A stretch of 64,000 nt of DNA. It comes from Opitutia bacterium (GTDB taxonomy: Bacteria; Verrucomicrobiota; Verrucomicrobiia; Opitutales; T3Sed10-336). The notes below the pieces were generated by a model, which was given only the letters and a program-made list of their open reading frames with translations, did not search any database and was not told where the DNA came from. Below, piece after piece: positions 2 through 40,872 of the stretch; positions within the stretch are counted from its first letter, which is position 1, and every line of letters starts with the position of its first letter. Where the stretch lies: the NCBI GenBank assembly GCA_050506795.1, contig JBJHCF010000003.1, positions 64,001 to 128,000 of the forward strand, given 5' to 3'. The position numbers were made by a program, and so were the translations under genes.

Positions 2-2293
2 CGGCTGGCCACCGGAGGGGCGGACGGTTCGATCCGGCTTTGGGATGCGGAATCCGGTGAGGTTGTGCGAATCTTTTCGGCGCCCTGGGGAGCCGTGACC
101 GCGTTGGCGTTCTCGCCGGGTGGCGAAGGGCTGGCGAGCGGGAGTTCCACTGGCGCGACCACGATTTGGAGCGTCTCGAACCAAGAGCCGGTGCGATCGT
201 TTGGCGGGGGCGGAGGCGCGGTGAGTTCATTGGCATTTGCTCCTGACGGAATTCGAGTCCTGGCCGGGGACTGGGAAGGCGGAGTCCGCCTCTGGGATAC
301 GGCGACCGGGGGGCTGATCCGGGAGTTTCGAGGACACACCGGAGCGGTGACGTCGGCGACCTTCTGGCCGAGCGGAGCAAGTGTGTTGACGGGAAGCCTG
401 GACGGCACCGCGCGTTTCTGGCAGGTTGCCACCGGGGAGGAAATCCGGCGATTTCAGGCCGGCGCCCCGGTATCGGCCGCCACCTTGTCGGCGGCGCAAA
501 CGATTGTAGTCACGGCCACCATGGAGGGCTCGGTTCGTATTTGGAATTTGGCGACGGGAGCGGCGATCAACACCTGGCCGGCCCACGACGCGGCAATCGG
601 CTCGGCGGCAATGTCTCCCGACGGCATGCGTCTGTTGACCGGAGGAGGTGAGGGCACGGCCCGTTTATGGCGGACGTTTCCAGTGGGATACGCGGTGCAG
701 GTTCTGGAGACGCCGTCATTTGGTGAGAATATCGTCGGCGAGCAGGAGACCGGGGTTGTGCGTTTGCGCAACGCCCTGACGACGCCGATCGATCTGCGAT
801 GGGGAACGCTTCCGGAAGGCTTCACCATTTCGGGGGATCTGCGCTCCCTGGCGCCGCGTGAGACACGTGAGTTTACGCTCAGGTTTACCCCGCGCAGGGA
901 AGGGTTGCAAACGGGACCCCTGGTTTTGTCGGCTTCCAATCTGTCGGGCTCCAAAACGATTGTTCTTTCCGGTGAAGGTGTATTGTATCGTCCGATACAC
1001 ACGATGGAAACGCAGACCCAACCCGTGCATGCGGCGGATTTATCGGTTGACGGAAAGTTTCTGATCACCGGAGGCGCGGATCGTACCGCGGTTGTGCGCG
1101 AAACGCAAAGCGGCGAAGTCCTGGCCTTGCTTCCCGGCCACGGGGCAACGGTTCAGGCCGCGGCGCTTTCAGCGGACGGCCTTTTCGCCGTCTCCGGTAG
1201 CGGTCAGGGCCGGATTTACCTGTGGGATTTGGAAGACGGGCCGGTGGCAGAGCCGACCAGGAGTTTCAGCGGGCATTTCGGGGCGATTTATACGGTGTCT
1301 ATTTCTCCCGACGGCCGGCGTTTTGTCACCGCGGGCTGGGACAATACCGTCAGACTCTGGTGTCGCGAAAGCGGAGATTTGGTGCATGCGTTTTCGGGGC
1401 ATACCCGTCAGGTGATTTCGTCTGCATTTTCTCCCGACGGGGGCCTGGTGCTCACCGGATCGGCCGATTCCACGGCTCGCTTATGGAACGTGGAATCGGG
1501 CGGATTGGTGCAGGCATTTTCTCCGGGCGTCGGCCGGATCAATGCCGTGGTGTTCTCGCCTTGCGGGCGGCGAATTCTGACCGGAGGGAGTGACGGCGCT
1601 GCGAGGTTGTGGTCGGTGGAAACCGGAGAGTTGCTCTTGAGCTTTGCCTACGGCGAGGGGTGGGTGGTTTCGGCGGCCTTTTCCGACGATGGGAGATGGA
1701 TTCTTACCGGGCATCTGGATGGGCGGGCGCGGTTGGTTGACGCCGTAAACGGAGATCTTCTGCGTACCTTTCCGGCCACCGGAACGGCGGTGCGCCTGGT
1801 CCGTTTTTTTCCGGGGAGTTCGCGGGTTTTTTTCCTGGGCAATGATGGCCGGGCGACGATCTGGTCAACGGTGGTGGATTTCCCGATCACTTTCGGTGAA
1901 TGGGTCGAGGCGTTGCCGCCCGGGAACGATGCGCGCCCTGGAGGCCGACCACCCGGAAGGCGACTGGCGAACCTGGTAAGGTACGCTTTGGGACACCAGG
2001 CCGACCGGGCGGAGGAGGGATTGTTGCCGGAGGTGACCAGGGGTGATGACGGGGCGGTGATTTTTGAATTCGATCGCCTGGCCCGCCGCCCCGATACGTC
2101 GATCAGCCTTGAAGTGTCGAATGATCTGAATACCTGGGAAACTGTCGCGTTGGCGGTGGGACTCGGTCCGTTTCTCCCCACGGGAGAGGGAGGAGTCACT
2201 GTGATTGGAGACCTCCGAGAGAGGAGGGTTCTTGTGGTCGACGAACACCCGTATCGTCGGGCCTTCCGCTTGGTCGTGCGCCTGGAAGAGTAG
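2..2293 (+). CDS. WD40-repeat protein (5'-truncated by window) with central Ig-like (ASH/choice-of-anchor-like) domain and shared C-terminal domain
   Basis: Frame is open from position 2 (RLATGGADGSIRLWDAESG). Many GH...FSPDG...TGS.DGTARLW repeats, Ig-like segment SFGENIVGEQETGVVRLRN...FTLRFTP, and C-terminal W...NLVRYALG...SNDLNTW...FRLVV. Confidence 0.9.
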   Translation, partial: RLATGGADGSIRLWDAESGEVVRIFSAPWGAVTALAFSPGGEGLASGSSTGATTIWSVSNQEPVRSFGGGGGAVSSLAFAPDGIRVLAGDWEGGVRLWDTATGGLIREFRGHTGAVTSATFWPSGASVLTGSLDGTARFWQVATGEEIRRFQAGAPVSAATLSAAQTIVVTATMEGSVRIWNLATGAAINTWPAHDAAIGSAAMSPDGMRLLTGGGEGTARLWRTFPVGYAVQVLETPSFGENIVGEQETGVVRLRNALTTPIDLRWGTLPEGFTISGDLRSLAPRETREFTLRFTPRREGLQTGPLVLSASNLSGSKTIVLSGEGVLYRPIHTMETQTQPVHAADLSVDGKFLITGGADRTAVVRETQSGEVLALLPGHGATVQAAALSADGLFAVSGSGQGRIYLWDLEDGPVAEPTRSFSGHFGAIYTVSISPDGRRFVTAGWDNTVRLWCRESGDLVHAFSGHTRQVISSAFSPDGGLVLTGSADSTARLWNVESGGLVQAFSPGVGRINAVVFSPCGRRILTGGSDGAARLWSVETGELLLSFAYGEGWVVSAAFSDDGRWILTGHLDGRARLVDAVNGDLLRTFPATGTAVRLVRFFPGSSRVFFLGNDGRATIWSTVVDFPITFGEWVEALPPGNDARPGGRPPGRRLANLVRYALGHQADRAEEGLLPEVTRGDDGAVIFEFDRLARRPDTSISLEVSNDLNTWETVALAVGLGPFLPTGEGGVTVIGDLRERRVLVVDEHPYRRAFRLVVRLEE

Positions 2294-2362
2294 GGGGCGT
2301 CCGGCGATGGAGTGGTTCGGGATTCGGGGATCGCGTTGCCCGGTCCGGTCAAAGGGAGGCGG

Positions 2363-5300
2363 TCAATTCTTCTCCAGGCGAAGACGAAGGAAGTAAGGCT
2401 CCGGCGATTGGACCGGATCGGCCAATCGGAAACGGACCGTGCGTACGGTCGGGTTCTCTTGCAGGGTTTCGGTTTGGCCTTCCGCCGGCTCCCAGGACTG
2501 GAGGTCTGTGGAGGCTTCCACGTGAAAAGTAATATCGGTGGCTGCTTTCAGGCGGGTGTAATCGATATAGGGATAGGACTCGCCTTTTTCGACCAGAATG
2601 CCCGCCCGGGGCAGCGAGGCGGACAGCGGCGCCGACGGATCGAGGCCGAGCGCGTATCGCATTAGATTGGGGACTCCCCGGTCGCCTGGGTCGGCCATGG
2701 GCCCGAACTGTTGCGGGTTCTCCATGGCATCCGTTCCGAACGCATTGCGCGCCCAGTCGTCGTAGTGTATTGCATGAATCGATACGTTAGCGGAAATCAG
2801 GTAGTCGATTCGACCCGTGTCCCAGTTATTGACTCCCACCCACCAGACTCCGGGTTCGGGGTGCAAGAACTGGCAGAACTCCTCCTGGACGCCGGCGAGA
2901 AAGGGACGGCAATCAAAGGAATTGAGATCGGGCTTTTCCCCCTTGCGGACGTAGAGGTCGGCGTCACCGCTCAAACCCGCCAGAACAACCTCCAATTGTC
3001 CCGCCTGCATGTGGGGGACCTCGACCCGGTAATACTTCCAGTCGTACTGGCGTTCCCGGCCGGTGATAAAATCCGCACGAACCGATCCCGGAGCGAGGGT
3101 TGTCGGTTCGACACCGGCCTGCTCAACGGTCAGCAGGACACGGCCGCCGGCGCTGATGGTGGCCGTGCGGGGCAGTGCGCTCCCCTGGTGGGCGGCCGCG
3201 CCGTAAATGACGTCGGTGCTGCCGCTTCCGCTGCGCGGGGTGAGGAACAGGAGCCAGTCGGCGCTGCTTTCGAGGCTCCACTGGCAATTGGTCAGCGAGC
3301 TTTCCAGCCGGGCCGTGAAGTAGCCGCCTTGTGAAGGCAGGGTCACCGTGCCCTCGCCCAGGGTGAAGTGGCAAGCCGGTTCGACTTCGAACACCTCCGG
3401 CAATTCGATTGAATCTCCGTCCGGGGAGAACAGTTCCAGATTCCACTGTCCGGCGGGCGCGGCGTAGAGATCGAAGCGGGCGGTGATGACGGACGGGGTG
3501 ACCTGAATGCCGAATCCCTCCGCCGCGCCACCTTGCGGGCCGGTGAGGCGGAGGTTGGTTCCCGGCAGAAATCCGGCGCCATGAATTTCCACCACGGCCA
3601 CTCCGTTGTTGGGTGCGGACTGAGGTTCGATGAAGTCGACCTGGGTGACGGTCGTTTCGGCTGCGTCCACGGAGGCGCCGGTGACGATGAGGGAATAGAT
3701 TTGCTCGGATCCCGGCTGCGCCTCGTCATATTCCACCCGCACGGTATAGGTTCCATTTTGGGGTTCGGGAATGTCGACCCGAAGAGTGTTGTCGACATGG
3801 TTTCTGCCGGTGGTGGCCGGCGCCGCCGGATTGGCGGGGTCGAGGCGAAAGGGGTGATGCCGGAAAGATCCGTCGGGCGAGAGAAGCGACAGGTGAAGAT
3901 TATTCACCAGGGTGGGCGAACGCTGATCCGTTTCGGATACCGGCCCGGTCGGCGGGGGATCCGTCCAGGAGAGGGTTGCCAGGATGGGGGAGTCTTCGTC
4001 CCAGGTTACCCGGTATTCCCGAGCCGGCCGTGAGGAGGTAAGCGAATCTTCGATGAACACCCGGCTTCGGGGAGAAGCGGCGTAGCGACGCACGATGGCG
4101 GCCGCGGCTTCGGTATTGATCAATCCCCATCCGTAACGGTAGTCCGGGCCCGGATTGCCGAGATCGTCGGCGGAGTGGATCAAAAGGGCTTTGAGTGTGC
4201 TCGCTCGGGGGGCATGTCCCGGGAAATACTCCCGGTAGAGCTCGGTTAGCAGCGCGAGTGACCCGGTGGTGGCCGGAGCCGCCATACTGGTACCGGAGGC
4301 CCGACCGTACCAGCCGTCGAGGGCCACCGGAGAAAGCACGCCGACACCGTGAGCGACCAGATCGGGCTTGATGCGGCCGTCGTCGGTGGGTCCCCAGGAA
4401 CTGAACGCCGTCATTCTGGCGTCGAATCGACCGCTCCGCTGGGAGGCGGGGAGAAAGTCGATGGCGCCAACGGTAAGGACGTTCTTGGCGATCTGATAGG
4501 AATTTACGGTGTCGAAACCCCGCTTGTAGACCGCGTCTCCCGGCGGATGCAACTCGGGGTCGTAGGGAACGACTCGATCGTTGATCAGGACCGGATCTCC
4601 TTTTCGAGGATCGCCGGAGCGGTGGTTGCCGGCCGCCCACACGGAGAGCAGGTAGGGCGAAGAATGAGCCAGCACGTCGGTGAGGTAGGCGAACTCGTCA
4701 TAACGGCCGAACCGGTCGTGGCCGGTGAACACGAAGGCGTTGCGTTCGCCGAGGAAAACCCAGCCCGCGACCAGTCCGTAGGAATGATTGGCCAGGGAGA
4801 TGGTGCCGGGTTCTCCGGGGTAAAACGGAGCCCGGCCGGCCATTTCGGCGAGCGCCTGGTTCCAGTCATAACCCTCAATCGTGGCCTGCGGCGCCACTCC
4901 GGTCGCCGGGGCGTGAGTGCCGCGGGCGGCGATGGTGCCGGCAACGTGGGTGGAATGGTGTGAAAAGAAAGGCGCACTGTGGTGATTGATAACGCGTCCG
5001 CGGTCGAATTCGCTATGGCTGGCGAGGATCCTGGCTTCGTCCCAAACGCCGACATGCACCCCTTTGCCGGTGGCTGAAAAACGACCGGGGCCGAGAATCG
5101 GGCGGGATCGGACCGATTGCGCTGCGACGGCGTTGAAGGTGGTTCGGTATAACGGCACACCGTTTTCAAAGGCCACCAGTTCGAGGGTGCGCCCGTCGTT
5201 GTCGACCGTACGGGCGGGGAATCCGCGGCGCCGGGCTTCCTCGCGGGCGGCGGCCTCGCGGTGCAGGCTGTATTCACGCAGGGTTTGCGCGAGGGATTCC

Positions 5301-5650
5301 CGATCCCGGCTGGATTGCCATGCCAAGGCGGCCGGCGCGGGCAAAGGGGGCGGTACATCGAACGAATCCGGAGGCGTGTATTCGTTTTCCTGAAACGGTT
5401 TTCCGGTTTCGGTCCCGGCGGAGGGTAGAAATCGGCCTGGAGGCAACGGCATGACGGGCGGTTGCGCCGCCGTTTCGGAATTCTGCCGGAAGCCGGTCGG
5501 ACTCTCCGATGCCATGGCGCCACCGGTTTCGGCGGCGGGCGGTACGGGCGTGGGATGTTGGATCGTCGTATCGTCGATACGAACCAGCAGGGAAGCGGCC
5601 GCCGCCAGGGCGAGGGTGAGAACCAGGAAGAAATGACGACGACCAAACAT
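2363..5650 (-). CDS. Secreted/anchored S8 subtilisin-like serine peptidase with BACON-like, PPC and shared C-terminal domains
   Basis: Catalytic motifs VGVWD, HSTHVAGTI, GTSMAAP; FSSWGPTDDGRIKPD; PPC motif GDADLYVRKG...DCRP; N-terminal hydrophobic segment. Confidence 0.92.
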   Translation of the reverse strand: MFGRRHFFLVLTLALAAAASLLVRIDDTTIQHPTPVPPAAETGGAMASESPTGFRQNSETAAQPPVMPLPPGRFLPSAGTETGKPFQENEYTPPDSFDVPPPLPAPAALAWQSSRDRESLAQTLREYSLHREAAAREEARRRGFPARTVDNDGRTLELVAFENGVPLYRTTFNAVAAQSVRSRPILGPGRFSATGKGVHVGVWDEARILASHSEFDRGRVINHHSAPFFSHHSTHVAGTIAARGTHAPATGVAPQATIEGYDWNQALAEMAGRAPFYPGEPGTISLANHSYGLVAGWVFLGERNAFVFTGHDRFGRYDEFAYLTDVLAHSSPYLLSVWAAGNHRSGDPRKGDPVLINDRVVPYDPELHPPGDAVYKRGFDTVNSYQIAKNVLTVGAIDFLPASQRSGRFDARMTAFSSWGPTDDGRIKPDLVAHGVGVLSPVALDGWYGRASGTSMAAPATTGSLALLTELYREYFPGHAPRASTLKALLIHSADDLGNPGPDYRYGWGLINTEAAAAIVRRYAASPRSRVFIEDSLTSSRPAREYRVTWDEDSPILATLSWTDPPPTGPVSETDQRSPTLVNNLHLSLLSPDGSFRHHPFRLDPANPAAPATTGRNHVDNTLRVDIPEPQNGTYTVRVEYDEAQPGSEQIYSLIVTGASVDAAETTVTQVDFIEPQSAPNNGVAVVEIHGAGFLPGTNLRLTGPQGGAAEGFGIQVTPSVITARFDLYAAPAGQWNLELFSPDGDSIELPEVFEVEPACHFTLGEGTVTLPSQGGYFTARLESSLTNCQWSLESSADWLLFLTPRSGSGSTDVIYGAAAHQGSALPRTATISAGGRVLLTVEQAGVEPTTLAPGSVRADFITGRERQYDWKYYRVEVPHMQAGQLEVVLAGLSGDADLYVRKGEKPDLNSFDCRPFLAGVQEEFCQFLHPEPGVWWVGVNNWDTGRIDYLISANVSIHAIHYDDWARNAFGTDAMENPQQFGPMADPGDRGVPNLMRYALGLDPSAPLSASLPRAGILVEKGESYPYIDYTRLKAATDITFHVEASTDLQSWEPAEGQTETLQENPTVRTVRFRLADPVQSPEPYFLRLRLEKN

Positions 5651-5832
5651 CAGTGAACTGCGGGAATTCCGGAGTGAATCCGGTGGCGAATGAGGAAAAC
5701 ATAGACCCGCTTTTCCTTCGGTTCAAGCTCCGCGCTTGTTCGGGGTGGGAGGCTTGTTTTTAAGTTGTCACCTCAGATCCCATTTTGGAAAATGAGAGAC
5801 AGGAAAACGGAGTATAAAAACCCCGGATAATT

Positions 5833-6279: not shown

Positions 6280-6336
6280 TTCCGGGCTTTCGATTCCGGC
6301 CCGATGTGCTATTGGTCAGGAGCAGTTCCGCCCCTT

Positions 6337-9865: not shown

Positions 9866-9876
9866 AATGTTGATGC

Positions 9877-15576: not shown

Positions 15577-16159
15577 GGTCTCGGGATCATACCCCGGTCT
15601 CTCAACTTTGCCCATCAGGGTAACCCCAGGCGTCGTTAAGTAAATGGTTGGGGTCCCTGCGTAATGGAAGCCCCGATGGATCTGGCGAAATTTGAGTCCG
15701 TGAGATCCATCGGGTAAAACGACGGATATCGAGAGTGCGGTGAAATCCTGGAATCCTATCCCGATGGATATAGGCGGTTTATATCGGCGAGGTAGAAACC
15801 TATGCGGGGAAATTTACAATGTTTGACATTAACTGGTTTGGATGCAGAAAAACACATAAAATTGTCGTAAAAATACAAGATTTGGTTATAGATTTTGTGT
15901 ATCTTTACCTAAGATATAAAAAATCCCATGTCTCCCATTCCCAATCTGTGGATTTTGGCTGTTTCCGAAACTGACGACCAACTGAAGTCGTCCCCTTTGT
16001 TACACTTTTTAGTCTCTTAATCAGTGTGCCTTGTTGCGTGGTATTCCGCCGTTTCGGCTGCGGGATGCCTTGCGATAGTGAATCCTGATTTCCCGATCTC
16101 TGATGTCCAACTCAGCATCGAAACACAACACCAACAAAAACCTACTACCTGTACCTGAT

Positions 16160-28981: not shown

Positions 28982-31900
28982 TTATTCCGGCAAGGTAACC
29001 TGAATTCTCAGGAATGCCCGGGGTGTTCCGCCCAGTTCAATCTCTACGGTGACCCACTCGAATTCGTTGTCACCGGCTGGAATTCTGGGCGGAACCTCCC
29101 GGATGCCGTTCGTGTTCCAGCCGTCGGTGAGCCGTGAACTCGTTTGTGGCGTATACAGTAAGTCATCAGCATCGATTCGTTCCGGATAGGTGAGCCGGAG
29201 GGTGTCGCCGGTTACGACCGGGCGGGGGAGATTGTGGCCGCCGGCGGGGAGGGCGGGGTCTAGGCCGAAGGCGTATTTGATCAGGTTGGACACGCCGTCG
29301 CCCAGCGGAGCCGCCCGGGGGCCGGAAACGGCGGGGTCGTTTCGCAGGTCGCCGGAAAAGTTGTGATTCCGCCAATCGTTGAACGTTCGGATCTCCGGTC
29401 CAACTTCCGGGCGGGCGGGAAGCGGGATGACCGGAGTCAGGGTGTGACGGGCGGTTGGCATTGGATAATCAGGGGTCATGTTTTCTATCAACACCCAGGC
29501 CTCATCCTCCGAGTTTCGGCCATACAGGCGCCACCGAACCGGATCCCTTCCCGCGGCGTCGTTGGCGGTGCCGAGTTGATAGGAATCGATTTCCACCACG
29601 GTCCCGAAATCGAAAAGGAGATGACTTCCTTCTTCATGGGCGCCGTGGAAGTCGAGCCATTTGGCGTCCTGGTCTCCCAGCAGGTTGGCCGGGCCCTCCG
29701 CCGATGGGTTGTTCCCCTTGGGATTTGTCACTTCGACCGCCTCCACCGGCTGTCCTTCGCGGTAGAAGAAGAACCGGGACAATTGCACCATGCCGGCGCC
29801 AGAATCGCGCAGGGCCGAATAATCGGGGAGGTCGAAGCGGAGGAACCGGTACGCGTGGGGATGCGGCTCACGGGAGCGCACCTTGACGGTGGCCGTGCGG
29901 GGTTCGTCATCGATTCCGACGGCCACCAGGGTGAAATCGGTGTCGGCGTTTTCCGCCGGAGTGATTTCCAGGGATCCCGAGGTGGCGACTTCTCCCAGGT
30001 CCGGATGCAGGCTGACGGTGGCGGCAAAGGCGGCTTCCCATTCCAGGGTGACGGACTCTCCGTTGCGAATGACGGTGAACTCGTGTCCCGGGGCCTGACC
30101 GATATGAAATCGGCTCACGATGGCGCCGGTGGGCAGATTGAAGGCGTCTGTTTCCAGGAAACGGGTGAACCGCGTTGTCGGGGTGGGAAACTCCTGAACC
30201 CGATCGAGCAGGATCCATTCGTTTTCATCGTTGCTGCCCTCCAGGGTCCAGGAAACCGGGTCTCGGTCGATCGCGTCGTTGGCGGTCCACATCATGTAGG
30301 CGTCCATGGGGGTCGTTTCGCCGAAATCGAAAATGAGCGGCGCCGGATTGCTGCCACCGAACCATTTTGTGTCCAGGTCGCCGTCGACCAGATTGGCGGG
30401 AGATTCATTACTGACTGGAGCGGGGCCGAGGACGTCCGGCAGATCCTTGAGTTGGTCGGCGCGGCGGCTTTCGAGGATGTCTTCGCCGTCGTGATAAAAG
30501 GTGAACTCCGAAAGTTGTACGCTCGAACTGCCCCGGGTGGCCAGCGGGGTCCAGCGGTAATAGCGGAAAGCCGGGGTCGAGGGATCCACCGCCGGGCGCT
30601 CCCGGGAGGTGACTCTGATGTCATCGAGACGCAGTTCGGCACGGGGTCCCGAGCCGGATAGGAAGTAATAGCGCCATTTGAGCTGTACCAGGGGCTGGTT
30701 CTCCAGAAGGCGGGGGAGGCGAATTGGTCCGAAGTGCTCGGTATGTCCTGCCTCGGCCTGTCGCCGGTATTCCAGCGGGCGTCCATCCTGGAAGAGATCG
30801 GACCATTTGCCCGCGGCGCCGATCCGGTAGCGCAGGCGCAGCGCGTACTCTCGCTCGTTGGGTTGGATGGTTGCGGCCAGCCAGCTGACGTCTATATCGG
30901 CGGCGTCGCGGGTGTCGAGTGCCAGCAGGGCGCCTCCCAGGTCGCGTCCCCGGCCGGTGTTTATAAAACTGATACCATCGGACCCGAGGGCGTTTATCCG
31001 GGTGCGCGAGAAGGCCGCGTAGGGGTAAATGACGTCCACCGGCTGCGCGGCGTCGCTTTCCGGAATGGCGTAGGCGTATTCAAGAACGTCGTCCAGCAGG
31101 GGATCGTTGCGATCGCTTTGCAGGAACAACATGTGCGCCGGATACTCTCCCGCCTGCATCGATGGCGACCAGAAATCAAACTCGTAATCCCCGGCGGCCA
31201 GGCGGTGGGGGGCCGGATACACCAGGACGCGGATTACCTGGGACACCGCGATGCCGTCTTCGTTGGCGGCTGTGATTACGAGATTCGTGCTGCCGCTACT
31301 CCGGCCCTCGACCCGGAGGTTGTGGCCCGCGATTTCGGCTGTGGCCACGCTTTCATCGCCGGAGGCGGCGGAAAACGAAAGTTGACCCGAATGGGAAAAG
31401 TGCTGGTGGAGGTCGATGGACGGAGCGGAATCGCCGGCGATGATTTCCTGGTTCGGGAGGATTGCGACCAGGACCGGTGGTGGGTTGGTTCCGGGCAGGG
31501 GCAATCCTTCCACGGTGAAATTGTCGAAACGATTATTGCCGGCGGTCCCGCCATCACCCGGTTCGAAGGTGATTCTCAATCCGAAGTTCGGGTTGTCTCC
31601 GGCGCCGGGACGGTCGCTGAAATCAAAGGTGTGGCGTGCTGGAACTCCGTTTTCGACTTCGATGACACGGAAGGTTTGAAACGTTTCGCCATCAAGGGTG
31701 TATTCCACCGTTTGGCGTCCGGCGCCTTGACCGGACCGGCGGGCTTCATAGCGAACGACGATGTTCTGGTAACCGGAGGTCGGGACTTCGACGGTGATGG
31801 CAGCCCCCACCGGATTGTTGACCCGCAGATGTTCGCCGACCTGAAATCCCAGTCGGGAGTTTTCTCCGGTGAAGTCCTGTCCGGTTCCGAAAACGAATTC

Positions 31901-34441
31901 GGTCGCCGCCCCCGGTTCAAGCTGCAGGGTGGCCGATCCGAGGGCGAAATCCGGATCGATTGTCTCCCCGTTGAAACTCCAGTAGGCCATCAGGCTCAGT
32001 AGCGATGCGGTTTCGATCAGGGACGGAGTGCTCCAGTGCTCGCCGTCGAACCTGCGGGCGACGAGAACAGCGCCGGGAGCGACGGCCAACGGCGACGAGT
32101 AGGCCGGCACTGACGGCTGCCCTCCGGGGCCCCTGGGATCGCTGCCGTCCGAAGTGACATGGATTGTGTCCGCTTCGTCGGAAGAAAAGGCGACGGAGAC
32201 CTTGCCGGCTTCGCGATCGATTTCGAGGGAGGCGACCGGTGGTGAGGGCAGGAGGCCGCCGTCGAGGCGGCGGCGCTCCATCCAGGCGGCCCGGCGGGTG
32301 GTCCAGTCAATAATATGGGCGATTTCAGCACGGAAGGTTCCGCCCCAGGGAGGATTCTCGCTCCAGCGGGCGAAGTTTCGCCGGGCGGCGGAGCCGATTC
32401 CCCGGATGTCGCGGTCGATCTCGTCGGCCATTCCTTGAATCATCGCCGACAGGGACTCATCCGAGTAGACGGTGACCCGCATTTCCGCCCAACGGTCGTA
32501 AAAGGCCTGCTCGAAGTCGGGATCCTCGATCAGGATTTCCCACCAGTGGGGCGCGTGTTCCGGACGGTAGTCGAAATAGCGGGTGGCGTCACCGGTTCCG
32601 TGCCAGGTGTTCCATTCGTTGTCGCGGCTGTCGAACGATCCCATGGATCGGTCGAAATCCCAGACCGGACCGGCGGCCAGAGGGCGGTCCTGGGGTTTGT
32701 GGAAAAAGGCGCTGAGACGAAGGGCGTCGACGTTTTTGGTGAAGGCGTTGATGATCAAATGATCGACAAATGAATCCCGGTCGATGTAGCGGAGGTATTC
32801 CCGAGTGTCGAAACCCGACGCGTGATCTGTGTACAAGGCGTCTTCCATAGCCTGGACGTAGCGGGTGAGGTAATCGACCTGGAGCGAAGCGTTGGCTGCG
32901 GACGCGCTGTCGGAGTACGGCCCGCCATCCAGACTGTGCAGCTTGGGGCGGGAAAGCGTCAAGTGATGGTAGCCCGGCACTCCGCGATCGGTATTCCAGC
33001 GGTATTCGTCGGCCGCCGACCGGTCCGCCTTGAAGATGTAGCCCCCGGTGCAGGGACCTTCGCTCAGGGGCTCAATGGGTCCGTCCGGGGGCAGGACGTG
33101 GGAATCGACAACGTCCATTCCCAAACGATGGTCGCCTTGTTTGATGCGCTCGACCACGGCGTAATACCCCATGTAGTCGTCGGGGCTGCTGCCCAGGACT
33201 CCGCCATCGTGGTTGACATAGACCTCGGCGAAACGCGTTTCCGGCGCCCAGCGTCCCATGGCGCGCGACAGGTCGAATGCCAGTGAATTGCGGATACCGG
33301 CACGGTCGTACTGGTAGCCGTTATAAAGAATCCAGTCGGAATCCGCAGCCATACCCAGAAGAGGGAGTGACCGATCGTGGTCGGATTCGTCCCAGAGTTC
33401 GACCGAGTAGTGGCGTTTTGGCCAGCTGCGCGAGCTCGATCCGCGAAAGCGTAACCCCTGTCGGGTGGCCAGATCGGGAACGGACGACAGGTCGCTGATC
33501 CCGGAGCCGTCGCGGTCGAACAGCAGCAGGTAGCCGGCCACCCGCGGCGTGCCCAGCGGAGTGGTCTGGGTGTTCAATTCCTGGTTGCTGGCGCCATGGG
33601 CATCCATGACGATTATGGGGAGGTTGGACCGCTTGGCGGCCAGGGAAGGGGAGACCTGGATGAAGTGGCGGGTCTCGACCTCTCCGGTTGCACCGTGGGC
33701 GTCCGACACCCGGGCGCGCAGGGTCGTGGTCCTGTCGATAAGGAGCGGCGCCTCATAACGGAGACTGTTGATGTCCGGACGGGTGTTGTCGGTGGTGTAA
33801 TAGATTTCCTGGTCCGGAGCGGCTCCCGAGAGCGCGACGGTCAGGGATTCGGAAAAAAGCCGGGATTCGGAGGAAAAGGTTACGGTCTCCGGCAGGTGGT
33901 GGGTGCCGGGACCGCCGTTGGGCTTACCCGGGGTGGGCAGGGCAAAGAATACCCAGCTTTCGGTATCCGCGGCGGACCGGCCGAAGGAGACATCCCGGGG
34001 AATGGAGGTGGGAGGAATCTCGTCGACCCGAAGGCCGTCCGGCCGAGTCAGCAGGATCTCTTCCCCGTCGGAATCGATGCGGAAATTGGTGTGTGGGTGT
34101 CCTCCGGGCGAATCCGAGGCAGGGCGATCTTTGCCGGAGGCCCAGACCAGGAGAAATTCGCCGGGTTTCAAGGTGACTCCCGGGGAGAAGGTCCAGCGGA
34201 AAGGACGGTTGAAATCATCGGAAAGGCCCCAGCCGGAAAGATCGACCGGTGCGGAGCCGGGGTTGTGAAGCTCGATCCAATCCTCGTAATCTCCGTCCTC
34301 GTCAGCCAGGGTGGTGCCGTTGGAGGCCATGATCTCGTTGATCCAAACCCGCCCCTCGAGCGGAACACAGAGCACCAACAGGAGCGCGGCTATCGAAATG
34401 TGAAGAAAAGGGGACAAATTGGCTGCTGGCGACGGGATCAT
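28982..34441 (-). CDS. Secreted CotH-family kinase with lamin-tail domain, Fn3-associated domain, discoidin-like modules and shared C-terminal domain
   Basis: Signal peptide; LTD (INEIMASN...DWIELHN); CotH motifs RGSSSR, DSDWIL, RNSLAF, NVDALRLSAF, GPVWDFD; TANDA..RDP modules. Confidence 0.88.
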   Translation of the reverse strand: MIPSPAANLSPFLHISIAALLLVLCVPLEGRVWINEIMASNGTTLADEDGDYEDWIELHNPGSAPVDLSGWGLSDDFNRPFRWTFSPGVTLKPGEFLLVWASGKDRPASDSPGGHPHTNFRIDSDGEEILLTRPDGLRVDEIPPTSIPRDVSFGRSAADTESWVFFALPTPGKPNGGPGTHHLPETVTFSSESRLFSESLTVALSGAAPDQEIYYTTDNTRPDINSLRYEAPLLIDRTTTLRARVSDAHGATGEVETRHFIQVSPSLAAKRSNLPIIVMDAHGASNQELNTQTTPLGTPRVAGYLLLFDRDGSGISDLSSVPDLATRQGLRFRGSSSRSWPKRHYSVELWDESDHDRSLPLLGMAADSDWILYNGYQYDRAGIRNSLAFDLSRAMGRWAPETRFAEVYVNHDGGVLGSSPDDYMGYYAVVERIKQGDHRLGMDVVDSHVLPPDGPIEPLSEGPCTGGYIFKADRSAADEYRWNTDRGVPGYHHLTLSRPKLHSLDGGPYSDSASAANASLQVDYLTRYVQAMEDALYTDHASGFDTREYLRYIDRDSFVDHLIINAFTKNVDALRLSAFFHKPQDRPLAAGPVWDFDRSMGSFDSRDNEWNTWHGTGDATRYFDYRPEHAPHWWEILIEDPDFEQAFYDRWAEMRVTVYSDESLSAMIQGMADEIDRDIRGIGSAARRNFARWSENPPWGGTFRAEIAHIIDWTTRRAAWMERRRLDGGLLPSPPVASLEIDREAGKVSVAFSSDEADTIHVTSDGSDPRGPGGQPSVPAYSSPLAVAPGAVLVARRFDGEHWSTPSLIETASLLSLMAYWSFNGETIDPDFALGSATLQLEPGAATEFVFGTGQDFTGENSRLGFQVGEHLRVNNPVGAAITVEVPTSGYQNIVVRYEARRSGQGAGRQTVEYTLDGETFQTFRVIEVENGVPARHTFDFSDRPGAGDNPNFGLRITFEPGDGGTAGNNRFDNFTVEGLPLPGTNPPPVLVAILPNQEIIAGDSAPSIDLHQHFSHSGQLSFSAASGDESVATAEIAGHNLRVEGRSSGSTNLVITAANEDGIAVSQVIRVLVYPAPHRLAAGDYEFDFWSPSMQAGEYPAHMLFLQSDRNDPLLDDVLEYAYAIPESDAAQPVDVIYPYAAFSRTRINALGSDGISFINTGRGRDLGGALLALDTRDAADIDVSWLAATIQPNEREYALRLRYRIGAAGKWSDLFQDGRPLEYRRQAEAGHTEHFGPIRLPRLLENQPLVQLKWRYYFLSGSGPRAELRLDDIRVTSRERPAVDPSTPAFRYYRWTPLATRGSSSVQLSEFTFYHDGEDILESRRADQLKDLPDVLGPAPVSNESPANLVDGDLDTKWFGGSNPAPLIFDFGETTPMDAYMMWTANDAIDRDPVSWTLEGSNDENEWILLDRVQEFPTPTTRFTRFLETDAFNLPTGAIVSRFHIGQAPGHEFTVIRNGESVTLEWEAAFAATVSLHPDLGEVATSGSLEITPAENADTDFTLVAVGIDDEPRTATVKVRSREPHPHAYRFLRFDLPDYSALRDSGAGMVQLSRFFFYREGQPVEAVEVTNPKGNNPSAEGPANLLGDQDAKWLDFHGAHEEGSHLLFDFGTVVEIDSYQLGTANDAAGRDPVRWRLYGRNSEDEAWVLIENMTPDYPMPTARHTLTPVIPLPARPEVGPEIRTFNDWRNHNFSGDLRNDPAVSGPRAAPLGDGVSNLIKYAFGLDPALPAGGHNLPRPVVTGDTLRLTYPERIDADDLLYTPQTSSRLTDGWNTNGIREVPPRIPAGDNEFEWVTVEIELGGTPRAFLRIQVTLPE

Positions 34442-35086: not shown

Positions 35087-35803
35087 ATGACAAATCGAGC
35101 GAGTAATTATTCCCCGGCGATCAAGCGGGGTTTCACTTTAATCGAACTCCTCACGGTGATAGCCATTATCGGCATCCTGGCGGCGATTCTCATTCCGGTC
35201 GTAAATCAGGTAAGGGACACGGCCCGCCGGGCGGTGTGTTCCTCGAATCTACGGCAGATTTCCCTGGCCATGATCATGTATGCCGATGATCACAATGGAA
35301 TTCTTCCCACCTCGGGGGACATGGACGCCCGTCCAACCGATTGGATTCAGTGGCGTGATGACGGGGAGTTTCACCGGTTGAGTGAAAGCGTCATTGTTCC
35401 CTATTTGGGCGGTCGGCTGGGAACGATGTTTTCCCCGGATATTTTCCGTTGTCCGTCTGACGAAAACATCGCCGAGAATCTCGGGAATCCCATCGGGGGA
35501 TGGGCGGCGTATTCCTACAGTTATACCATGAACATGGGGATCTCCGAGCGCAGTCAGTTGAACGGACGTTTGTACAACGTCAAGGATCCCACTCATATCA
35601 TCATGTTGGTGGAAGAAGGACGACCGAACGACAGCGGAGCCTATTTGAACAGCGATCTCGACTTCCTGACCGAGCGTCACGGGGGGAAGGGGCACGTTTC
35701 CTTCCTGGATGCCCATGTACGGCTGGTTTACCCGGAATTCGCCAAACACCCGTCAAACTGGGATCCGTTCTACACCGGCCGCCCGTACACGGGGCCGCGG
35801 TAA
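35087..35803 (+). CDS. Prepilin-type N-terminal cleavage/methylation protein with H-X9-DG-like C-terminal motif
   Basis: [60 protein letters not shown]. Confidence 0.93.
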
Positions 35804-35898
35804 CCTTGGTTCGTTCTCACGACCGGGTGGCAACGTTCCCCCCGGCCGCGGAGTCCGGCTTTTTTTTAAGTTCACACGATTCACCCAAAAACAGACCA

Positions 35899-38800
35899 AT
35901 GAAAAATAGATTCGAACCCAGTTCCCGAGCATGGGGCCTTATGGCGGCCGGAGCCGTCGCGGCTTCGACCCTGTGCGCACCTCTCTTCGCATCCGAAGCC
36001 GAACCGATACTCAACTTCGACGGAATCGAGAGTATTATTCAGACCGATCTGCATCCCGAAGACCTTGGCATCCAGGGAAACAATCCCAAAACGTTCGAAG
36101 CCTGGGCTTACACCCGGGCTTTCACCGAGGGAGGGGTTTTTCATGTCGGCACCTCGAACGCCGGTGAGGAATTCGCCCTGCGCACCCACGGGCTCAACGA
36201 CCGTTGGATGGCGCAGTTCTGGGGAAGCCCGGACCAGGTGTTTTCCGTGATCGGATCGAGCAACAACTGGACCCACTTCGCTTTTGTTTACGACGGGACC
36301 ACTCTGCGGGTTTACGCCAACGGCGAGGTTGTGGTTGACGAGGAAGTGGTGCTGGACACCCAGGGGGATGAATGGCCCCTTCGAATCGGCGCGTGGCGGG
36401 AACAGCATTTCAACGGTGCCATCCGTGATGTTCGGGTTTGGAACGTGGCTCGTACCCAGGCGCAGATCCAGGCGAACATGTCCGACACCTCTTCGCTGCC
36501 GCAGGCCAATCTGGTGGCCTGGTGGCCCTTGGATGAAGGGGAGGGGCGCGTTGCCAACGATGCTTCGGGCAACGGACGTCACGCCGATATTTTTGCCGCC
36601 CAATGGGAAGGGCATCAACTTGCCTACGACCCGGAGATCGAGGCCGACTTTGTCCTGGATTTTGGCGTCGGAGCCGGCCAGGCGAACGAGTCCGGACTGC
36701 TGCGCAATCGTGCGGATCATTTCTCTCTTGAGGACGATTCCCTCCGCATGACCAACACCACGGGCAACTTCATTTCCAGCGGCGCGGTGGCGTCCGTGAG
36801 CAACTACCAATCCGGACAGAGTTTTGTCCTGGAATCCGAGATCACCCTGACCGCTTTTCCGGATGTGCGCGCTTCCCGGCCGGGACTGATTGTACTGGGT
36901 GGGCCTCATGTTCCCCTGGAGCAGCCGTTTAATACCGGGGCGGACCAGAACTTTTACAGTGTATCCTTTTTTCCGGCTCTGCCTCCCGGAACAGTGACTT
37001 CGCTATTTCCTGCGATTGCGCCGGCCGGTGACTCGACCGCGGTGATCGCCATTTCCAACGGATTCAATGGTCCGTTCCTGGCGGCCCAACGTTGGGACGG
37101 TCGCCGTCCCGGGCCGGAGGCTTTGTTCGCCGACGATTTCGAAACTCCGGCCAACGATTCCCAATGGCAACGCGGCGGGCCGCAGGACAGCTGGGAGATC
37201 GGGAGCTTGGGATACCCGTCGGAAACCGTATTGCCGCCGGTGGAAGGCAGCACGCGGGTCGCCGCGACCAACCTGAACAGCCGCGTTTCCGAGAACTCGG
37301 AAGATTGGCTCCGTTCACCCGTGATCGACCTGACCGGGGTGGCGGCCGCGGAGGTCAGTTATCGCGAGGCCTTGTGGATTGATGATCACGTGGAAGACGG
37401 AGTGCAAGTTCACACCGCGACCGTTTCGGTAGTGGATGCCGACGGCAACTTTATCGCCCAACTGGCCCAGGACTGGGGCAACAGTGACGGCTGGCGGAAC
37501 CGATCGTTGAGCCTGCCGCCGGAAGCACTCGGTCAGCCGGTGCGGGTGGAGTTCCTGATGGTGACGGATAACTTCGCCATGAACGACCATTACGGCTGGA
37601 TCATCGACGACTTCGAGGTGAGCGCATTCTCTATGGAGCCGGGTGCGTTCGCCATGCGCGCCGAGGGCGCCTACGGGTTCGGCGGGGAGCTCACTCTTAC
37701 CATGACGCTTACCGATCTGGCCGATGCGGCGGAATACAGCCAATCCGTTTCGACCCATATCCTGAATCCGCGTGAAGGGAACCTTTTCGGGCTGGGAGGT
37801 CGCTTGCAGACCACCCCTTCGGGTGATCCGCAAATCGATTTCGCGAACCTCTCCATGACCCTGGTGGAGTCGCCGGAGTTGGTGCCGACAACGCCTGCGT
37901 CGGCGTTCTATTATCCGTTCGGCTCGGCGGGCACCCGGGTGAGTCCCGGAAATTTCGCCCTATATGCTGCGGAGGACTGGTCTCTGCAGTCCAATTCGCT
38001 GCAATTGACAGCAAGTCCGGCGGCGGAAAATTCACTGGCGGTTACCCGCGTCCGTGAATTCAGGCCGGGCAATGCGATTCACGTGGAATCCGACATCGTG
38101 CTGTCGAGCCTGAATGCCGGCGCCGCGGGCAATATTGGACTGGTCCTTTTCGGGCAGGAGGATTCGGCCGCATTCGATCCAAATGACAGCGGAACGTATT
38201 ACACGTTTCAATACATGGCCGACGCCAACGGCGGCAGCCGAATCGCGCTGAGGGAAGGGACTTCAGGCCCGATTCTTTATGAGTCTCCTTTTGCCGCGCC
38301 GGTCGAAGGAGCGACCTATCGCTTTGAGTTCACGGGAACTCCAAACGGGGACGGGGTTATCGACTTCACGGCCATCCTCTCCGCCGGCAACGGAGCCAAC
38401 GGAACGCTAAGTGGAGAGATACACGCTTCCATGGAAGGGCGCAACCGGTTCGGTTTCGGTTCCTCCCAGGGCGGCGGCGATGTCTGGGACGTCGTAAATT
38501 TCGGCGGCTACACCACGGTGGAGCAGGATGCGGAGTTCCAACTTTATCGTTGGACCCCCCTGCAGGTCAGAGGCGCCAGCAGCATCCAGATGTCCGAATT
38601 CACCTTCTTCTACCAGGGGACCGATATCCTGGAGGCCCGACGGGCGGCGGAACAACCGATGCCGACGGTGACGGGTTCTCACCCCATCGGTCACGAGGGT
38701 CCGCCCCAATTGGTGGACGGTGATACCGGGACGAAATGGTTCGGTAATGACACCTCGCAACCGGTGCTCTTCACCTTTGACGAGCCGGTGCAAATCGACG

Positions 38801-40872
38801 CCTACATGATGTGGACGGCCAACGACGCTCCTGATCGGGATCCGTTGAGCTGGCGTCTGGAAGGCAGTAACGACGGGTTTGACTGGGTGCTCCTTGATAC
38901 GGTCATGAATTTCCCGACACCGACAGACCGGTTTACTCGATTCATGGAAAGCGGCGAATTCGATCTGCCCACGGGAGCGTTGCTGAATGAATTCAATATC
39001 GGAGGCCTCCAGGGAGCCACCTTCCGGGTGGTCCGCAACGGTGAACCCTTTACCCTTGCATGGGATACGACCTTTGCCACGAGCGTCAGCATTCAGCCCG
39101 ATATCGGCCAGGTATCGGCGGCCGGAACGGTCGAGGTGACCGCTCCGGAGGATGATGAAACCGTCTACACGTTGACCGCTGTCGGCGCTGATGGCGCACC
39201 GCAGGTGGCGTCGGTAACGGTCCGTTCGGTGGCGGCTTCGGCACACACTTACCAGTATGTGCGTTTTGACCTGCCGGATGCCACTTCCCGCCGCGGCGCC
39301 GGAAACAGTATCCAATTGGCGCAGTTCCAATTCTATCTCGAGGGCGAGGAAGTTGTTCCGGTCGGGGTAAGCAACCCTGGGGGCAATACTCCGGCCAACG
39401 AACCGGTTTCAAACCTGTTGGTACCAAGCGGGAAATGGCTCGATTTCAACGGTGCAACCCGCATGCCGGGAGCCATTCAAGGCAGTCGCGTGGTCTTCGA
39501 TTTCGGTGAAACCGTATCCATCGACGGGTATCGTTTCGTGACCGCCAACGACGCTCCCGAACGCGATCCCGTGCGGTGGCGGCTTTGGGGGCGGAATGTG
39601 GAGACCGAGGATTGGACACTGATTGAGCACATGGCCGAGGCCTACCCGGTTCCGACGGCGCGAAACACGCCGACCCAGACGTTCCCGCTGGTTTCGGATC
39701 CGGTGCCAACCACCGGAGTGATCGATCGATTCAGCGTGGACCGGATTGGCGGCGAGGAAGTCAACAGCACCTTGTTCGCCATCGTATACGATGGAACCAC
39801 CGTGGGGCTCACCTGGGAAACGATCGGCACGACCAATGCCAGCATCAACCCGACTCCCGGAGCTGTCGATCCGAGTGGAACCAGCGATGTGCTGCCGCCG
39901 CAAAGCGCCAGCACCAACATCACGATTTCCGCTCCGCGCGACGGCGGTACGGATACGGCGACAGCCTGGGTTCGGTCGGTGCCGGAGGATCATTTCGAAT
40001 CGGTGCGTTATGTCCGTTTCGACATTCCGGGGAATGCGGCGCTGCGTAATCCGAACGAGAACAGTATTCAACTCTCGCGTTTCTTCTTCTATCGCAACGG
40101 AACCCGGGTGGATGCGATCAGTGTGAGTAATCCCGGGGGCGATACGCCCTCGGCCGAACCGGCCGGGAACCTGCTGGGCGACAGCGACTCCAAATGGCTT
40201 GATTTCAATCGAGCCAATGTGAACGACAGCCACCTGGTTTTCGACTTCGGCCAGGTGGTCGAAATCGATTCCTATCAGTTTGGGACGGCCAACGATTCCA
40301 ACGGACGCGACCCGTTGCGCTGGCGGCTGTATGGACGGGTCTCGGAGGAGGACGAATGGGAATTGATCGAGAATATGCCGGTGAATTATCCGGTTCCGAC
40401 CGCGAGATTGACCCTCACCAATATTATTCCACTCCCGGGTGCCGCTCTGGCGGTTCCCTCGGGCGCGTCGTTCGCCGACTGGCGTGAGACCTTCTTCGAA
40501 GGCGGCGATCAGACTGACGATACCGTTTCCGGTCCGCTGGCGACTCCGGCGGGCGACGGCGTCGCCAATCTGCTCAAATACGCATTCGGTCTGGATCCCT
40601 GGACTCCGGTAAGCGCGGCGGATATGCCGCAGCCGGAGGTGGACGGCGCGACCTTGCGTCTGACCTACCTCGAACGGGTCGGAGCAACCGATATCCTCTA
40701 CACGCCGCAGAGGTCCTACACCCTGGGCAATGACTGGGATACGCAGGGAATCCAGGAGGTGCCTCCGAGAGTTCCGGTCATGGAAGGCGAGTTCGAATGG
40801 GTCACCGTCGAACTGCCGTTGAACGGGGAAAGCAAAGCCTTCCTGCGGGTTCAAGTGCGGGCGCTGGATTAA
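35899..40872 (+). CDS. Giant secreted lectin-like protein: LamG, duplicated beta-sandwich with MAM-like insert, three discoidin-like modules, shared C-terminal domain
   Basis: Signal peptide from ATG 35899; LamG (TFEAW...WTHFAFVYDG...FNGAIRDVRVWN); three TAND..RDP..W.L.G modules. Confidence 0.87.
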   Translation: MKNRFEPSSRAWGLMAAGAVAASTLCAPLFASEAEPILNFDGIESIIQTDLHPEDLGIQGNNPKTFEAWAYTRAFTEGGVFHVGTSNAGEEFALRTHGLNDRWMAQFWGSPDQVFSVIGSSNNWTHFAFVYDGTTLRVYANGEVVVDEEVVLDTQGDEWPLRIGAWREQHFNGAIRDVRVWNVARTQAQIQANMSDTSSLPQANLVAWWPLDEGEGRVANDASGNGRHADIFAAQWEGHQLAYDPEIEADFVLDFGVGAGQANESGLLRNRADHFSLEDDSLRMTNTTGNFISSGAVASVSNYQSGQSFVLESEITLTAFPDVRASRPGLIVLGGPHVPLEQPFNTGADQNFYSVSFFPALPPGTVTSLFPAIAPAGDSTAVIAISNGFNGPFLAAQRWDGRRPGPEALFADDFETPANDSQWQRGGPQDSWEIGSLGYPSETVLPPVEGSTRVAATNLNSRVSENSEDWLRSPVIDLTGVAAAEVSYREALWIDDHVEDGVQVHTATVSVVDADGNFIAQLAQDWGNSDGWRNRSLSLPPEALGQPVRVEFLMVTDNFAMNDHYGWIIDDFEVSAFSMEPGAFAMRAEGAYGFGGELTLTMTLTDLADAAEYSQSVSTHILNPREGNLFGLGGRLQTTPSGDPQIDFANLSMTLVESPELVPTTPASAFYYPFGSAGTRVSPGNFALYAAEDWSLQSNSLQLTASPAAENSLAVTRVREFRPGNAIHVESDIVLSSLNAGAAGNIGLVLFGQEDSAAFDPNDSGTYYTFQYMADANGGSRIALREGTSGPILYESPFAAPVEGATYRFEFTGTPNGDGVIDFTAILSAGNGANGTLSGEIHASMEGRNRFGFGSSQGGGDVWDVVNFGGYTTVEQDAEFQLYRWTPLQVRGASSIQMSEFTFFYQGTDILEARRAAEQPMPTVTGSHPIGHEGPPQLVDGDTGTKWFGNDTSQPVLFTFDEPVQIDAYMMWTANDAPDRDPLSWRLEGSNDGFDWVLLDTVMNFPTPTDRFTRFMESGEFDLPTGALLNEFNIGGLQGATFRVVRNGEPFTLAWDTTFATSVSIQPDIGQVSAAGTVEVTAPEDDETVYTLTAVGADGAPQVASVTVRSVAASAHTYQYVRFDLPDATSRRGAGNSIQLAQFQFYLEGEEVVPVGVSNPGGNTPANEPVSNLLVPSGKWLDFNGATRMPGAIQGSRVVFDFGETVSIDGYRFVTANDAPERDPVRWRLWGRNVETEDWTLIEHMAEAYPVPTARNTPTQTFPLVSDPVPTTGVIDRFSVDRIGGEEVNSTLFAIVYDGTTVGLTWETIGTTNASINPTPGAVDPSGTSDVLPPQSASTNITISAPRDGGTDTATAWVRSVPEDHFESVRYVRFDIPGNAALRNPNENSIQLSRFFFYRNGTRVDAISVSNPGGDTPSAEPAGNLLGDSDSKWLDFNRANVNDSHLVFDFGQVVEIDSYQFGTANDSNGRDPLRWRLYGRVSEEDEWELIENMPVNYPVPTARLTLTNIIPLPGAALAVPSGASFADWRETFFEGGDQTDDTVSGPLATPAGDGVANLLKYAFGLDPWTPVSAADMPQPEVDGATLRLTYLERVGATDILYTPQRSYTLGNDWDTQGIQEVPPRVPVMEGEFEWVTVELPLNGESKAFLRVQVRALD

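Follow-up and report, generated by a model that had tools for sequence, protein, structure and literature searches.

Five large proteins encoded in the analysed stretch of Opitutia DNA (64,000 nucleotides, hereafter the window) end in copies of one module of about 130 residues that is predicted to fold independently. A hidden Markov model (HMM) of the five tails matches each of them with E-values from 7.8e-39 to 4.8e-61, and each copy is followed directly by a stop codon. The initial annotation had pointed to such a tail from recurring sequence patterns. Its five copies are found within about 12 nucleotides of the positions given there. The helix strings that it quoted (NLVRYALG, NLMRYALG, NLVKYALG, NLIKYAFG and NLLKYAFG) and the terminal strings (RAFRLVV, YFLRLRL, RFIRLGV, AFLRIQV and AFLRVQV) all occur in the translations. 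The HMM and a search of the whole genome confirm that unrelated proteins with Sec-like N-termini share a domain whose position is locked to the C-terminus.

The first copy (1877..2290, + strand, E 7.8e-39) closes a WD40 beta-propeller protein (2..2293, +) that is open at its 5′ end in the window and has a signal-like start upstream in the contig. As claimed, this copy lacks the DP that follows the YALG helix elsewhere, and its loop is degenerate. The second copy (2366..2779, − strand, E 1.1e-49) sits on a protease of 1095 residues with Peptidase_S8 and PPC domains and a signal-like N-terminus (2363..5650, −). The third (20261..20650, +, E 1.8e-45) ends a giant protein with Laminin_G_3 and Ig domains (16103..20653, +) that comprises 1516 residues from the first ATG and has a signal-like start near 16160. 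The fourth (28985..29398, −, E 6.2e-61), whose sequence was used for folding, belongs to a protein of 1819 residues with LTD, CotH and F5/8-type-C domains (28982..34441, −). The fifth (40456..40869, +, E 4.8e-61) terminates a lectin giant with Laminin_G_3 and F5/8-type-C domains (35500..40872, +); the first ATG of this gene is at 35500, but the signal-like start is found at about 35899. These cargo assignments agree with the initial annotation, and all five carriers, including the WD40 protein that starts upstream of the window, have a signal-peptide-like N-terminus. The W, P, N-L, Y-A, G, G, L and R positions are invariant in the five-tail alignment, in which pairwise identity to copy 1 is 23–25%. 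In a 45-row alignment, the CotH copy shares 55% identity with the lectin copy.

An iterated HMM search of the 4.9-Mb genome found 106 copies of the tail in 102 open reading frames (ORFs). These carriers make up about 2.8% of the gene-like ORFs (102/3654) and 30% of the ORFs of at least 1000 residues (57/192). As the initial annotation had anticipated, the domain is terminal: in 90 of the 106 copies, no more than 10 residues lie between its end and the stop, and three copies called internal still finish with an F-x-R-[LI] strand. All but one of the carriers (101/102) contain a single copy, and the remaining one contains a tandem pair. The ORFs of the genome contain 36 occurrences of the motif NL..[YF]A[LF]G and the reversed sequences none; 35 of these occurrences belong to the HMM set, and 34 lie 80–115 residues before a stop. 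The full pattern of the initial annotation, anchored at the C-terminus, matches 28 ORFs and no reversed sequence. Since both motif and pattern are absent from reversed sequences, and given the HMM E-values, chance does not account for the shared tail. The last strand is followed by 3–5 residues in 68 of 91 terminal copies, and the final residue is E or D in 45 of 91. The copies are deeply diverged, with a median identity of 26% between cargo clusters. The nearest relative of a tail belongs to the same cargo cluster in 35 of 48 cases, so the tails have mostly diverged together with their cargo. Copies split by an inserted domain also occur.

The carriers, with a median length of 1127 residues, sort into 59 cargo clusters. 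Pfam families were found on 24 of 35 cluster representatives, and all of them are of extracellular type (LamG, LRR_5, CotH, propellers, serpin, S8, GH43, BNR, sulfatase, PATR and others). By a heuristic that is loose, a signal-like N-terminus is present in 79 of 91 carriers of at least 400 residues, compared with 632 of 1421 other ORFs of this size, which agrees with the proposed co-occurrence of tail and signal peptide.

AlphaFold models the CotH copy with a pLDDT of 95.7. In the predicted structure, about 55 residues form a helical lid, which packs onto a sandwich of Ig/FN3-like type with about 75 residues and 6–7 strands. The lid would comprise a helix with the invariant Trp and a TSP3/EF-hand-type loop from which the helix NLxxYA[LF]G-x-DP exits. 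The sandwich carries Y-x-V-E-x-S-x-D-L-x-x-W, and its last strand, F-x-R-L-x-V, ends 3–5 residues from the free C-terminus. Most of the conserved positions are core residues. Fold searches returned generic Ig-like matches only (Foldseek TM ≤ 0.38). Structurally, the sandwich comes closest to FN3 domains of cytokine receptors and to constant domains of Ig (Z 8.2–5.3); the best match (Z 8.2, rmsd 2.7, 82 aligned residues) is within the range that the tool calls common. The loop has the consensus D-x-D-x-D-G-x-x-N-x-x-E, from which many copies in this genome deviate: the six positions are all retained in 17 of 77 copies here and in 127 of 262 database copies. This part of the module resembles the bacterial TSP3 repeat (PF18884), D-x-D-x-D-G-x-x-N-L-L-E-Y...DP, but TSP3 repeats form tandem arrays, whereas the tail has a single loop fused to the Trp helix and the sandwich. 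TSP3_bac matches one of 35 representatives (L122, 31.8 bits at a cut-off of 25) and, in hmmscan against Pfam-A, none of the five window tails; the ESM Atlas lists it on 10% of one near cluster. The initial annotation had named a match to a characterised domain as grounds against its reading. This applies in part, in that NLxxYAxG-DP is the exit of a TSP3/EF-hand-type calcium loop, but this covers about 22 of the 130 residues and has no assigned function, and the domain as a whole is uncatalogued.

Indeed, no existing family model of the whole domain was found in Pfam-A, NCBIfam or PDB sequences. In hmmscan at E ≤ 1, the five 200-residue tails gave no Por_Secre_tail match against Pfam-A and NCBIfam and no dockerin match against Pfam-A, and a PDB sequence search returned nothing under E 0.5. 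No description of the domain was found in literature searched for the motif strings, for Verrucomicrobia (Verrucomicrobiota) with C-terminal sorting, CTD, beta-sandwich, T9SS or PEP-CTERM, for DUF1559 or pseudopilins, and for dockerin or TSP3; a passage of the Haft preprint (10.1101/2023.06.07.544157) deals with PEP-CTERM only. A word-index protein search with the tail yielded just three proteins. In contrast, a profile search without word index matched 40,716 cluster representatives in public data, mainly from Verrucomicrobiota. Of 121 genomes sampled from the phylum, 51 carry the tail, and its distribution is patchy within families; for example, two of seven genomes in family f22 carry it, with no known correlate. 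In 80 loci from other named genomes we counted 83 copies. After setting aside six partial copies and one that runs off its locus, 73 of 76 end within 12 residues of the stop. The last copy is equally close to the end in 195 of 218 database proteins. Tandem tails occur in 41 of these 218, a list biased to multi-copy proteins by its score-ranked top-150 part. Among S8 homologues, all 87 that bear the CTD have just one copy. Elsewhere the lid half is found as a tandem repeat, with 15 stretches in P0054.

The PEP-CTERM/exosortase system (PF07589, PF09721) invites comparison, as it also places a C-terminal tag on exported proteins, in the same genome and on the same cargo domains. PEP-CTERM is a 24-residue motif followed by a transmembrane helix and basic residues, whereas the tail is a 130-residue soluble fold with neither PEP motif nor helix anchor and ends in a beta strand plus 3–5 residues. 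None of the 19 PF07589-positive ORFs in this genome carries the tail, yet eight of them share cargo homology with carriers, and three of these eight are adjacent gene pairs with 81%, 56% and 45% identity. Tail and PEP-CTERM are therefore exclusive on one protein and interchangeable between paralogues. PEP-CTERM ORFs are shorter, with a median of 296 residues. Ten of the 19 genes lie within three genes of a tail gene; these neighbours are not one family but truncated paralogues of the cargo itself. Exosortase is present in all 51 tail-bearing genomes of the phylum sample, but clade confounds this nesting, as almost every genome in the tail-bearing families has an exosortase. One exosortase gene lies five genes from a tail gene, a distance expected by chance given that about 19% of genes are as near. 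A loose PEP-type regular expression picked out two S8 homologues, whose ends do not resemble those of true PEP-CTERM proteins.

How might the tail work? Our leading reading, which we hold tentatively and a little short of even confidence, is that it serves large exoproteins as a module for retention at the surface or as an address. Sec would export the cargo, and the folded tail would then present a common handle by which the envelope could keep or place diverse proteins at the cell surface. Within this genome, large proteins would owe to the tail what small ones owe to PEP-CTERM. The analysis establishes the family, its fold class and position, the range of cargo, and the exclusivity and interchange with PEP-CTERM, while surface localisation, any binding partner and the route across the outer membrane are inferred. 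The initial annotation had proposed a sorting or anchoring tag, and the evidence in favour is circumstantial, namely terminal position, single copy, extracytoplasmic-type cargo, and the exclusivity and interchange with PEP-CTERM; no machinery, binding partner or cleavage came to light. We also counted against an address that the tail is predicted to fold stably and has a calcium-loop motif, like ordinary extracellular binding or spacer domains, and that lid-half repeats, tandem tails, patchy spread and the lack of dedicated machinery in our searches accompany it.

An alternative is an ordinary accessory domain, a calcium-stabilised Ig/FN3-like unit that binds ligands or caps its protein, has no part in sorting and is terminal by architectural habit. 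A sandwich in the common-fold range, like that of terminal Ig/FN3-like domains, a TSP3/EF-hand-type loop in the lid, deep divergence alongside the cargo and conservation centred on core residues are all consistent with this explanation. We consider it rather unlikely, though a serious contender. The tail has no sequence relationship to Ig/FN3 domains, and its lid, motifs and terminal lock are its own. Against the accessory-domain explanation, it would be unusual for a binding or spacer domain to be locked to the last 10 residues in 85–96% of thousands of architectures or to be restricted to one copy, and the exclusivity and interchange with PEP-CTERM would be unexpected for a spacer. A docking function, with the tail binding cargo by protein-protein contact to a cohesin-like receptor or scaffold, possibly PEP-CTERM-anchored, in multi-enzyme surface complexes, seems to us very unlikely. 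Type I dockerins of cellulosomes are likewise C-terminal on unrelated enzymes and contain a D-x-D-x-D-G loop followed by a helix, so that the lid looks like half a dockerin, and the proximity of PEP-CTERM genes and the nesting within exosortase-positive genomes fit such a scheme. However, dockerins pack two loop-helix repeats into about 70 residues and have no sandwich; the tail combines one loop, mostly incomplete in this genome, with a sandwich, and its five window copies lack a Dockerin_1 match. In addition, the adjacent PEP-CTERM proteins are truncated cargo paralogues, and no repeated receptor protein was identified.

A close architectural precedent is the C-terminal domain of type IX secretion (T9SS) cargo in Bacteroidota (Por_Secre_tail, PF18962/TIGR04183), which is removed after export by a PorU-type sortase. 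This system also combines a Sec signal with one small beta-sandwich at the extreme C-terminus, on dozens to about 100 diverse and often giant proteins per genome, and this architecture is found in the tail carriers as well. By analogy, the folded tail may be an outer-membrane export signal that is recognised in the periplasm by a type II or an undescribed translocon and perhaps then removed. The constrained distance to the free C-terminus and the five secretin genes in the genome favour such a role; a T9SS-type tail was not detected on any of the five. On the other hand, the tail differs from the T9SS domain by its helical lid with a calcium-type loop, by phylum and by the absence of any sequence match. 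A six-frame search of the genome with PF18962 gave no matches, and neither did one with SprA_N (PF14349); control genomes likewise gave none with either model. No translocon or processing enzyme was found to co-occur or co-localise with the tail in neighbourhoods and genome comparisons, and a pure signal would not normally come in tandem or be interrupted by an inserted domain. We judge an export signal to be distinctly unlikely. A further reading, in which Verrucomicrobiota have an undescribed pathway for outer-membrane sorting and attachment, specialised for very large exoproteins and with the tail as its cargo signal, strikes us as unlikely too; in function it would correspond to the T9SS domain or to PEP-CTERM/exosortase.

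Verrucomicrobiota are major polysaccharide degraders in soils, waters and guts. To our knowledge, it is not known how they place huge enzymes and adhesins outside the cell. A profile finds the tail in tens of thousands of public proteins, and a family model would immediately improve annotation. If the tail is indeed an address, it would also give direct access to a new route of sorting or anchoring and a surface-display tool for Verrucomicrobiota.

The neighbours of the tail genes in the window are housekeeping genes with no dedicated machinery among them. DUF1559 pseudopilins, LacI regulators and sulfatases are enriched near tail genes. Pseudopilins had been suggested as a possible partner, but as a general partner we reject them, because pilin-like counts do not track tail counts across genomes (tails/pilin-like genes: 124/6 in G016, 37/7 in G023, 7/33 in G022 and 88/62 in G007) and because pilin-like genes also stand ahead of genes without a tail. 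What holds is synteny in this family of genomes: DUF1559/N_methyl pilin-like genes adjoin 12 of 38 tail genes against a background of 4.8%, and about nine of them lie directly upstream on the same strand.

Translation of the five window ORFs that carry the tail (a WD40 protein, an S8 protease, a LamG/Ig giant, a CotH protein and a lectin giant) reproduced the C-terminal strings read in the initial annotation, and the cargo domains outside the tail agreed with its assignments. Signal-like N-termini, claimed there for the four complete genes, were present in all five. The aligned tails share invariant W, N-L, Y-A, G, L and late R residues. An HMM built from them was run on the source genome (4.94 Mb, 82 contigs, 97.8% complete), taking every stop-to-stop ORF of 80 aa or more, and recovered each of the five at E values of 7.8e-39 to 4.8e-61, which bears out the proposed common pattern. 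These ORFs contain the motif NL..[YF]A[LF]G 36 times and their reversed sequences not once; 34 of the 36 occurrences sit 80–115 residues ahead of the stop.

Over three rounds of iteration, the HMM enlarged the family in this genome from 83 through 99 to 102 ORFs, which hold 106 tail domains at i-E < 1e-3. The tail is locked to the extreme C-terminus, as had been surmised, and is present in one copy per protein. The distance to the stop is at most 10 residues for 90 domains, 11–30 for 4, 31–100 for 4 and above 100 for the other 8. Among the non-terminal calls, several match the TSP3-like lid alone, and others are diverged tails whose last strand is still F-x-R-[LI]. A single carrier holds a tandem pair. 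Carriers are large (median ORF 1127 aa), and of the 192 ORFs that reach 1000 aa, 57 have the tail. A nested variant occurs in two carriers, on contigs C43 (37410-42149, -) and C40 (47867-50917, +), where an insert of ∼235 residues splits the two halves of the tail and the beta half stays C-terminal. The two inserts are homologous (60% identical), and the same domain occupies residues 78–299 of a 2888-aa carrier on contig C24.

The tail rides on Sec-exported extracytoplasmic cargo. Clustering the 102 carriers with their tails masked out gave 59 cargo clusters, including 45 singletons. For the Pfam search, each of the 36 smallest clusters outside the window was represented by its shortest member; one of these was dropped for overlapping the window, and 14 larger representatives were left out. 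Of these 35 representatives, 24 contain Pfam families, every one extracytoplasmic in type, and 11 contain none. Carrier N-termini look like classic Sec signals. By a deliberately loose heuristic, a signal peptide is called in 79 of the 91 carriers that reach 400 aa and in 632 of the 1421 other ORFs in that size range; a stricter threshold gives 65 and 458, respectively. Tails mostly co-diverge with their cargo: in 35 of 48 cases the closest tail belongs to the same cargo cluster, and median identity between tails is 40% inside a cluster and 26% across clusters.

The genome also encodes 19 PEP-CTERM ORFs, 2 exosortases and 5 secretins. Tail and PEP-CTERM are mutually exclusive and interchangeable endings. 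None of the 19 PEP-CTERM ORFs carries the tail, and 10 have a tail gene within three genes. The cargo of eight is homologous to that of carriers; either ending thus occurs with the same cargo domains. PEP-CTERM is found on small proteins, the tail on large ones. In three adjacent pairs, on C34 (43662-48590, +), C17 (11321-16222, +) and C22 (73423-77794, +), the short PEP-CTERM protein contains a duplicate of the cargo domain found at the N-terminus of its large tail-bearing neighbor (81% identity across 230 aa, 56% across 186 aa and 45% across 298 aa, respectively). PEP-CTERM matches occur in 20 of 20 tail-positive relatives versus 4 of 11 tail-negative ones, and exosortase in 51 of 51 tail-positive versus 33 of 70 tail-negative genomes of the phylum sample, a nesting confounded by clade and genome size. 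Searches for the T9SS families Por_Secre_tail and SprA_N gave no match in the source genome, and the controls of both searches were likewise without match.

The tail is a real, very large and uncatalogued domain family with a confident fold. No Pfam-A or NCBIfam family fell on the five tails at E ≤ 1; the sole hits at these ORF ends were to PPC, upstream of the tail, and, weakly, to DUF3999. Nor did any Pfam family cover the tail in the twelve top database hits or in six more proteins, S8 homologues and top hits, of which four have a named source. A PDB sequence search gave no match below E 0.5, and a full-text literature search found no description of the domain. Foldseek and VIA-align found nothing more specific than generic Ig/FN3-like folds (best Z 8.2, rmsd 2.7, 82 residues aligned, a value the tool calls common), and in the ESM Atlas the tail falls among Verrucomicrobiota clusters labeled "hypothetical protein".

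Among 1.84 billion cluster representatives, a profile search found 40,716 proteins at E ≤ 1e-3, of which 17,481 reach 1e-10 and 181 reach 1e-30. Within the order, 20 of 31 genomes have the tail at E ≤ 1e-5, including 11 of 11 other genomes of the window's family, and it occurs in 8 of 19 other families. Across the phylum (an even sample of 121 genomes from 68 genera, each genome at least 90% complete), 51 genomes and 35 genera have it at E ≤ 1e-8. With a profile trained on a single genome, whole families show no tail at this cut-off (f29, 0/20; f36, 0/11; f35, 0/7), and others, such as f22 (2/7), are split. A pattern scan of named genomes gave 319 matches, 281 of them confirmed. The best 80 of these are nearly all from Verrucomicrobiota (Opitutales, Chthoniobacterales, Verrucomicrobiales/Akkermansiaceae, Pedosphaerales/Limisphaerales); the rest are two Kiritimatiellae, one Lentisphaerae and one record labeled Binatia. 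These 80 loci hold 83 copies, six partial and one running off its locus; 73 of the remaining 76 end within 12 residues of the stop.

Among 119 homologues of the window S8 protease, the tail is terminal in 81, scored internal in 6 and missing from 30, some of which are truncated; a loose PEP regex matched 2 of the 119. Other tail-less homologues, of about 890–910 aa, have another short conserved ending, PP-x4-6-G-T-[VL]-[FLI]-x-[VL]-[RFH] (database proteins P0231-P0233, P0244-P0246, P0251, P0265 and P0272). Those with named sources, P0231, P0232 and P0233, are called Kiritimatiellia. This ending may be another lineage-specific C-terminal tag.

The tail consensus reads W...(G/A)P.AD-P-D-G-D-G-V-P-N-L-L-E-Y-A-L-G-L-D-P...L-P...F...Y-x-V-E-x-S-x-D-L-x-x-W...R-F-L-R-L-x-V. 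AlphaFold2, given a 45-paralogue alignment, predicted four short helices (6–43), an extended linker and six strands (60–135) at pLDDT 95.7 and pTM 0.87. A 12-residue EF-hand/TSP3 loop fits HMM positions 25–36 (loop positions 1, 3, 5, G6, 9 and 12), and Pfam TSP3_bac matches it in one canonical copy, that of carrier L122. All six positions are complete in 17 of 77 full-length copies from the source genome versus 127 of 262 from database proteins. Position 12 is Arg/Lys in 46 and Glu in 17 of the 77, and Arg/Lys in 108 and Glu in 139 of the 262. The basic residue stands where a calcium-ligand Glu is expected; one may speculate from these residues that the charge swap dispenses with scarce Ca2+.

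We tentatively infer that the tail addresses or anchors proteins at the cell surface. We regard an ordinary calcium-stabilized accessory or binding domain as somewhat unlikely, an outer-membrane export signal as unlikely and a dockerin-like assembly module as improbable. No mechanism step was observed for any of the four readings. Beyond the last strand, 68 of 91 terminal copies have 3–5 residues, and 45 of the 91 finish with E or D; the 30 residues upstream showed no special composition. The 102 carriers as a whole contain only 1.0% lysine and 0.2% cysteine.

Genes within three of a tail gene are enriched in DUF1559/N_methyl pseudopilin-like genes (20/36, p 6e-10), LacI-type regulators (7/10) and sulfatases (10/21). 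By motif count, 12 of 38 pilin-like genes directly adjoin a tail gene; for genes overall the share is 4.8%. About nine are co-directional with the tail gene and just upstream of it, ahead of cargo from 8 different clusters; examples with DUF1559 and N_methyl (H-X9-DG) are C10:17684-18442 (-), C22:27237-27968 (+) and C6:45995-46753 (+). The arrangement recurs in G007, a genome of the same family, and is absent from the window. Pseudopilins were rejected as the general partner of the tail: they also precede tail-less genes, including other exoenzyme genes, and pilin-like numbers do not track tail numbers in other families. We read the adjacency as operon organization of exoenzyme loci.

Next to the S8 protease gene, window positions 6378-7722 (-) encode an ECF-type sigma factor (Sigma70_r2/r4) followed by a 264-aa ORF without a Pfam family, possibly a sigma/anti-sigma pair controlling the protease. 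The ORF at 8909-10096 (-) encodes a XerC/D-type tyrosine recombinase (Phage_integrase and SAM-like domains) and overlaps two stop-to-stop frames, those of queA and of an amine oxidase gene.
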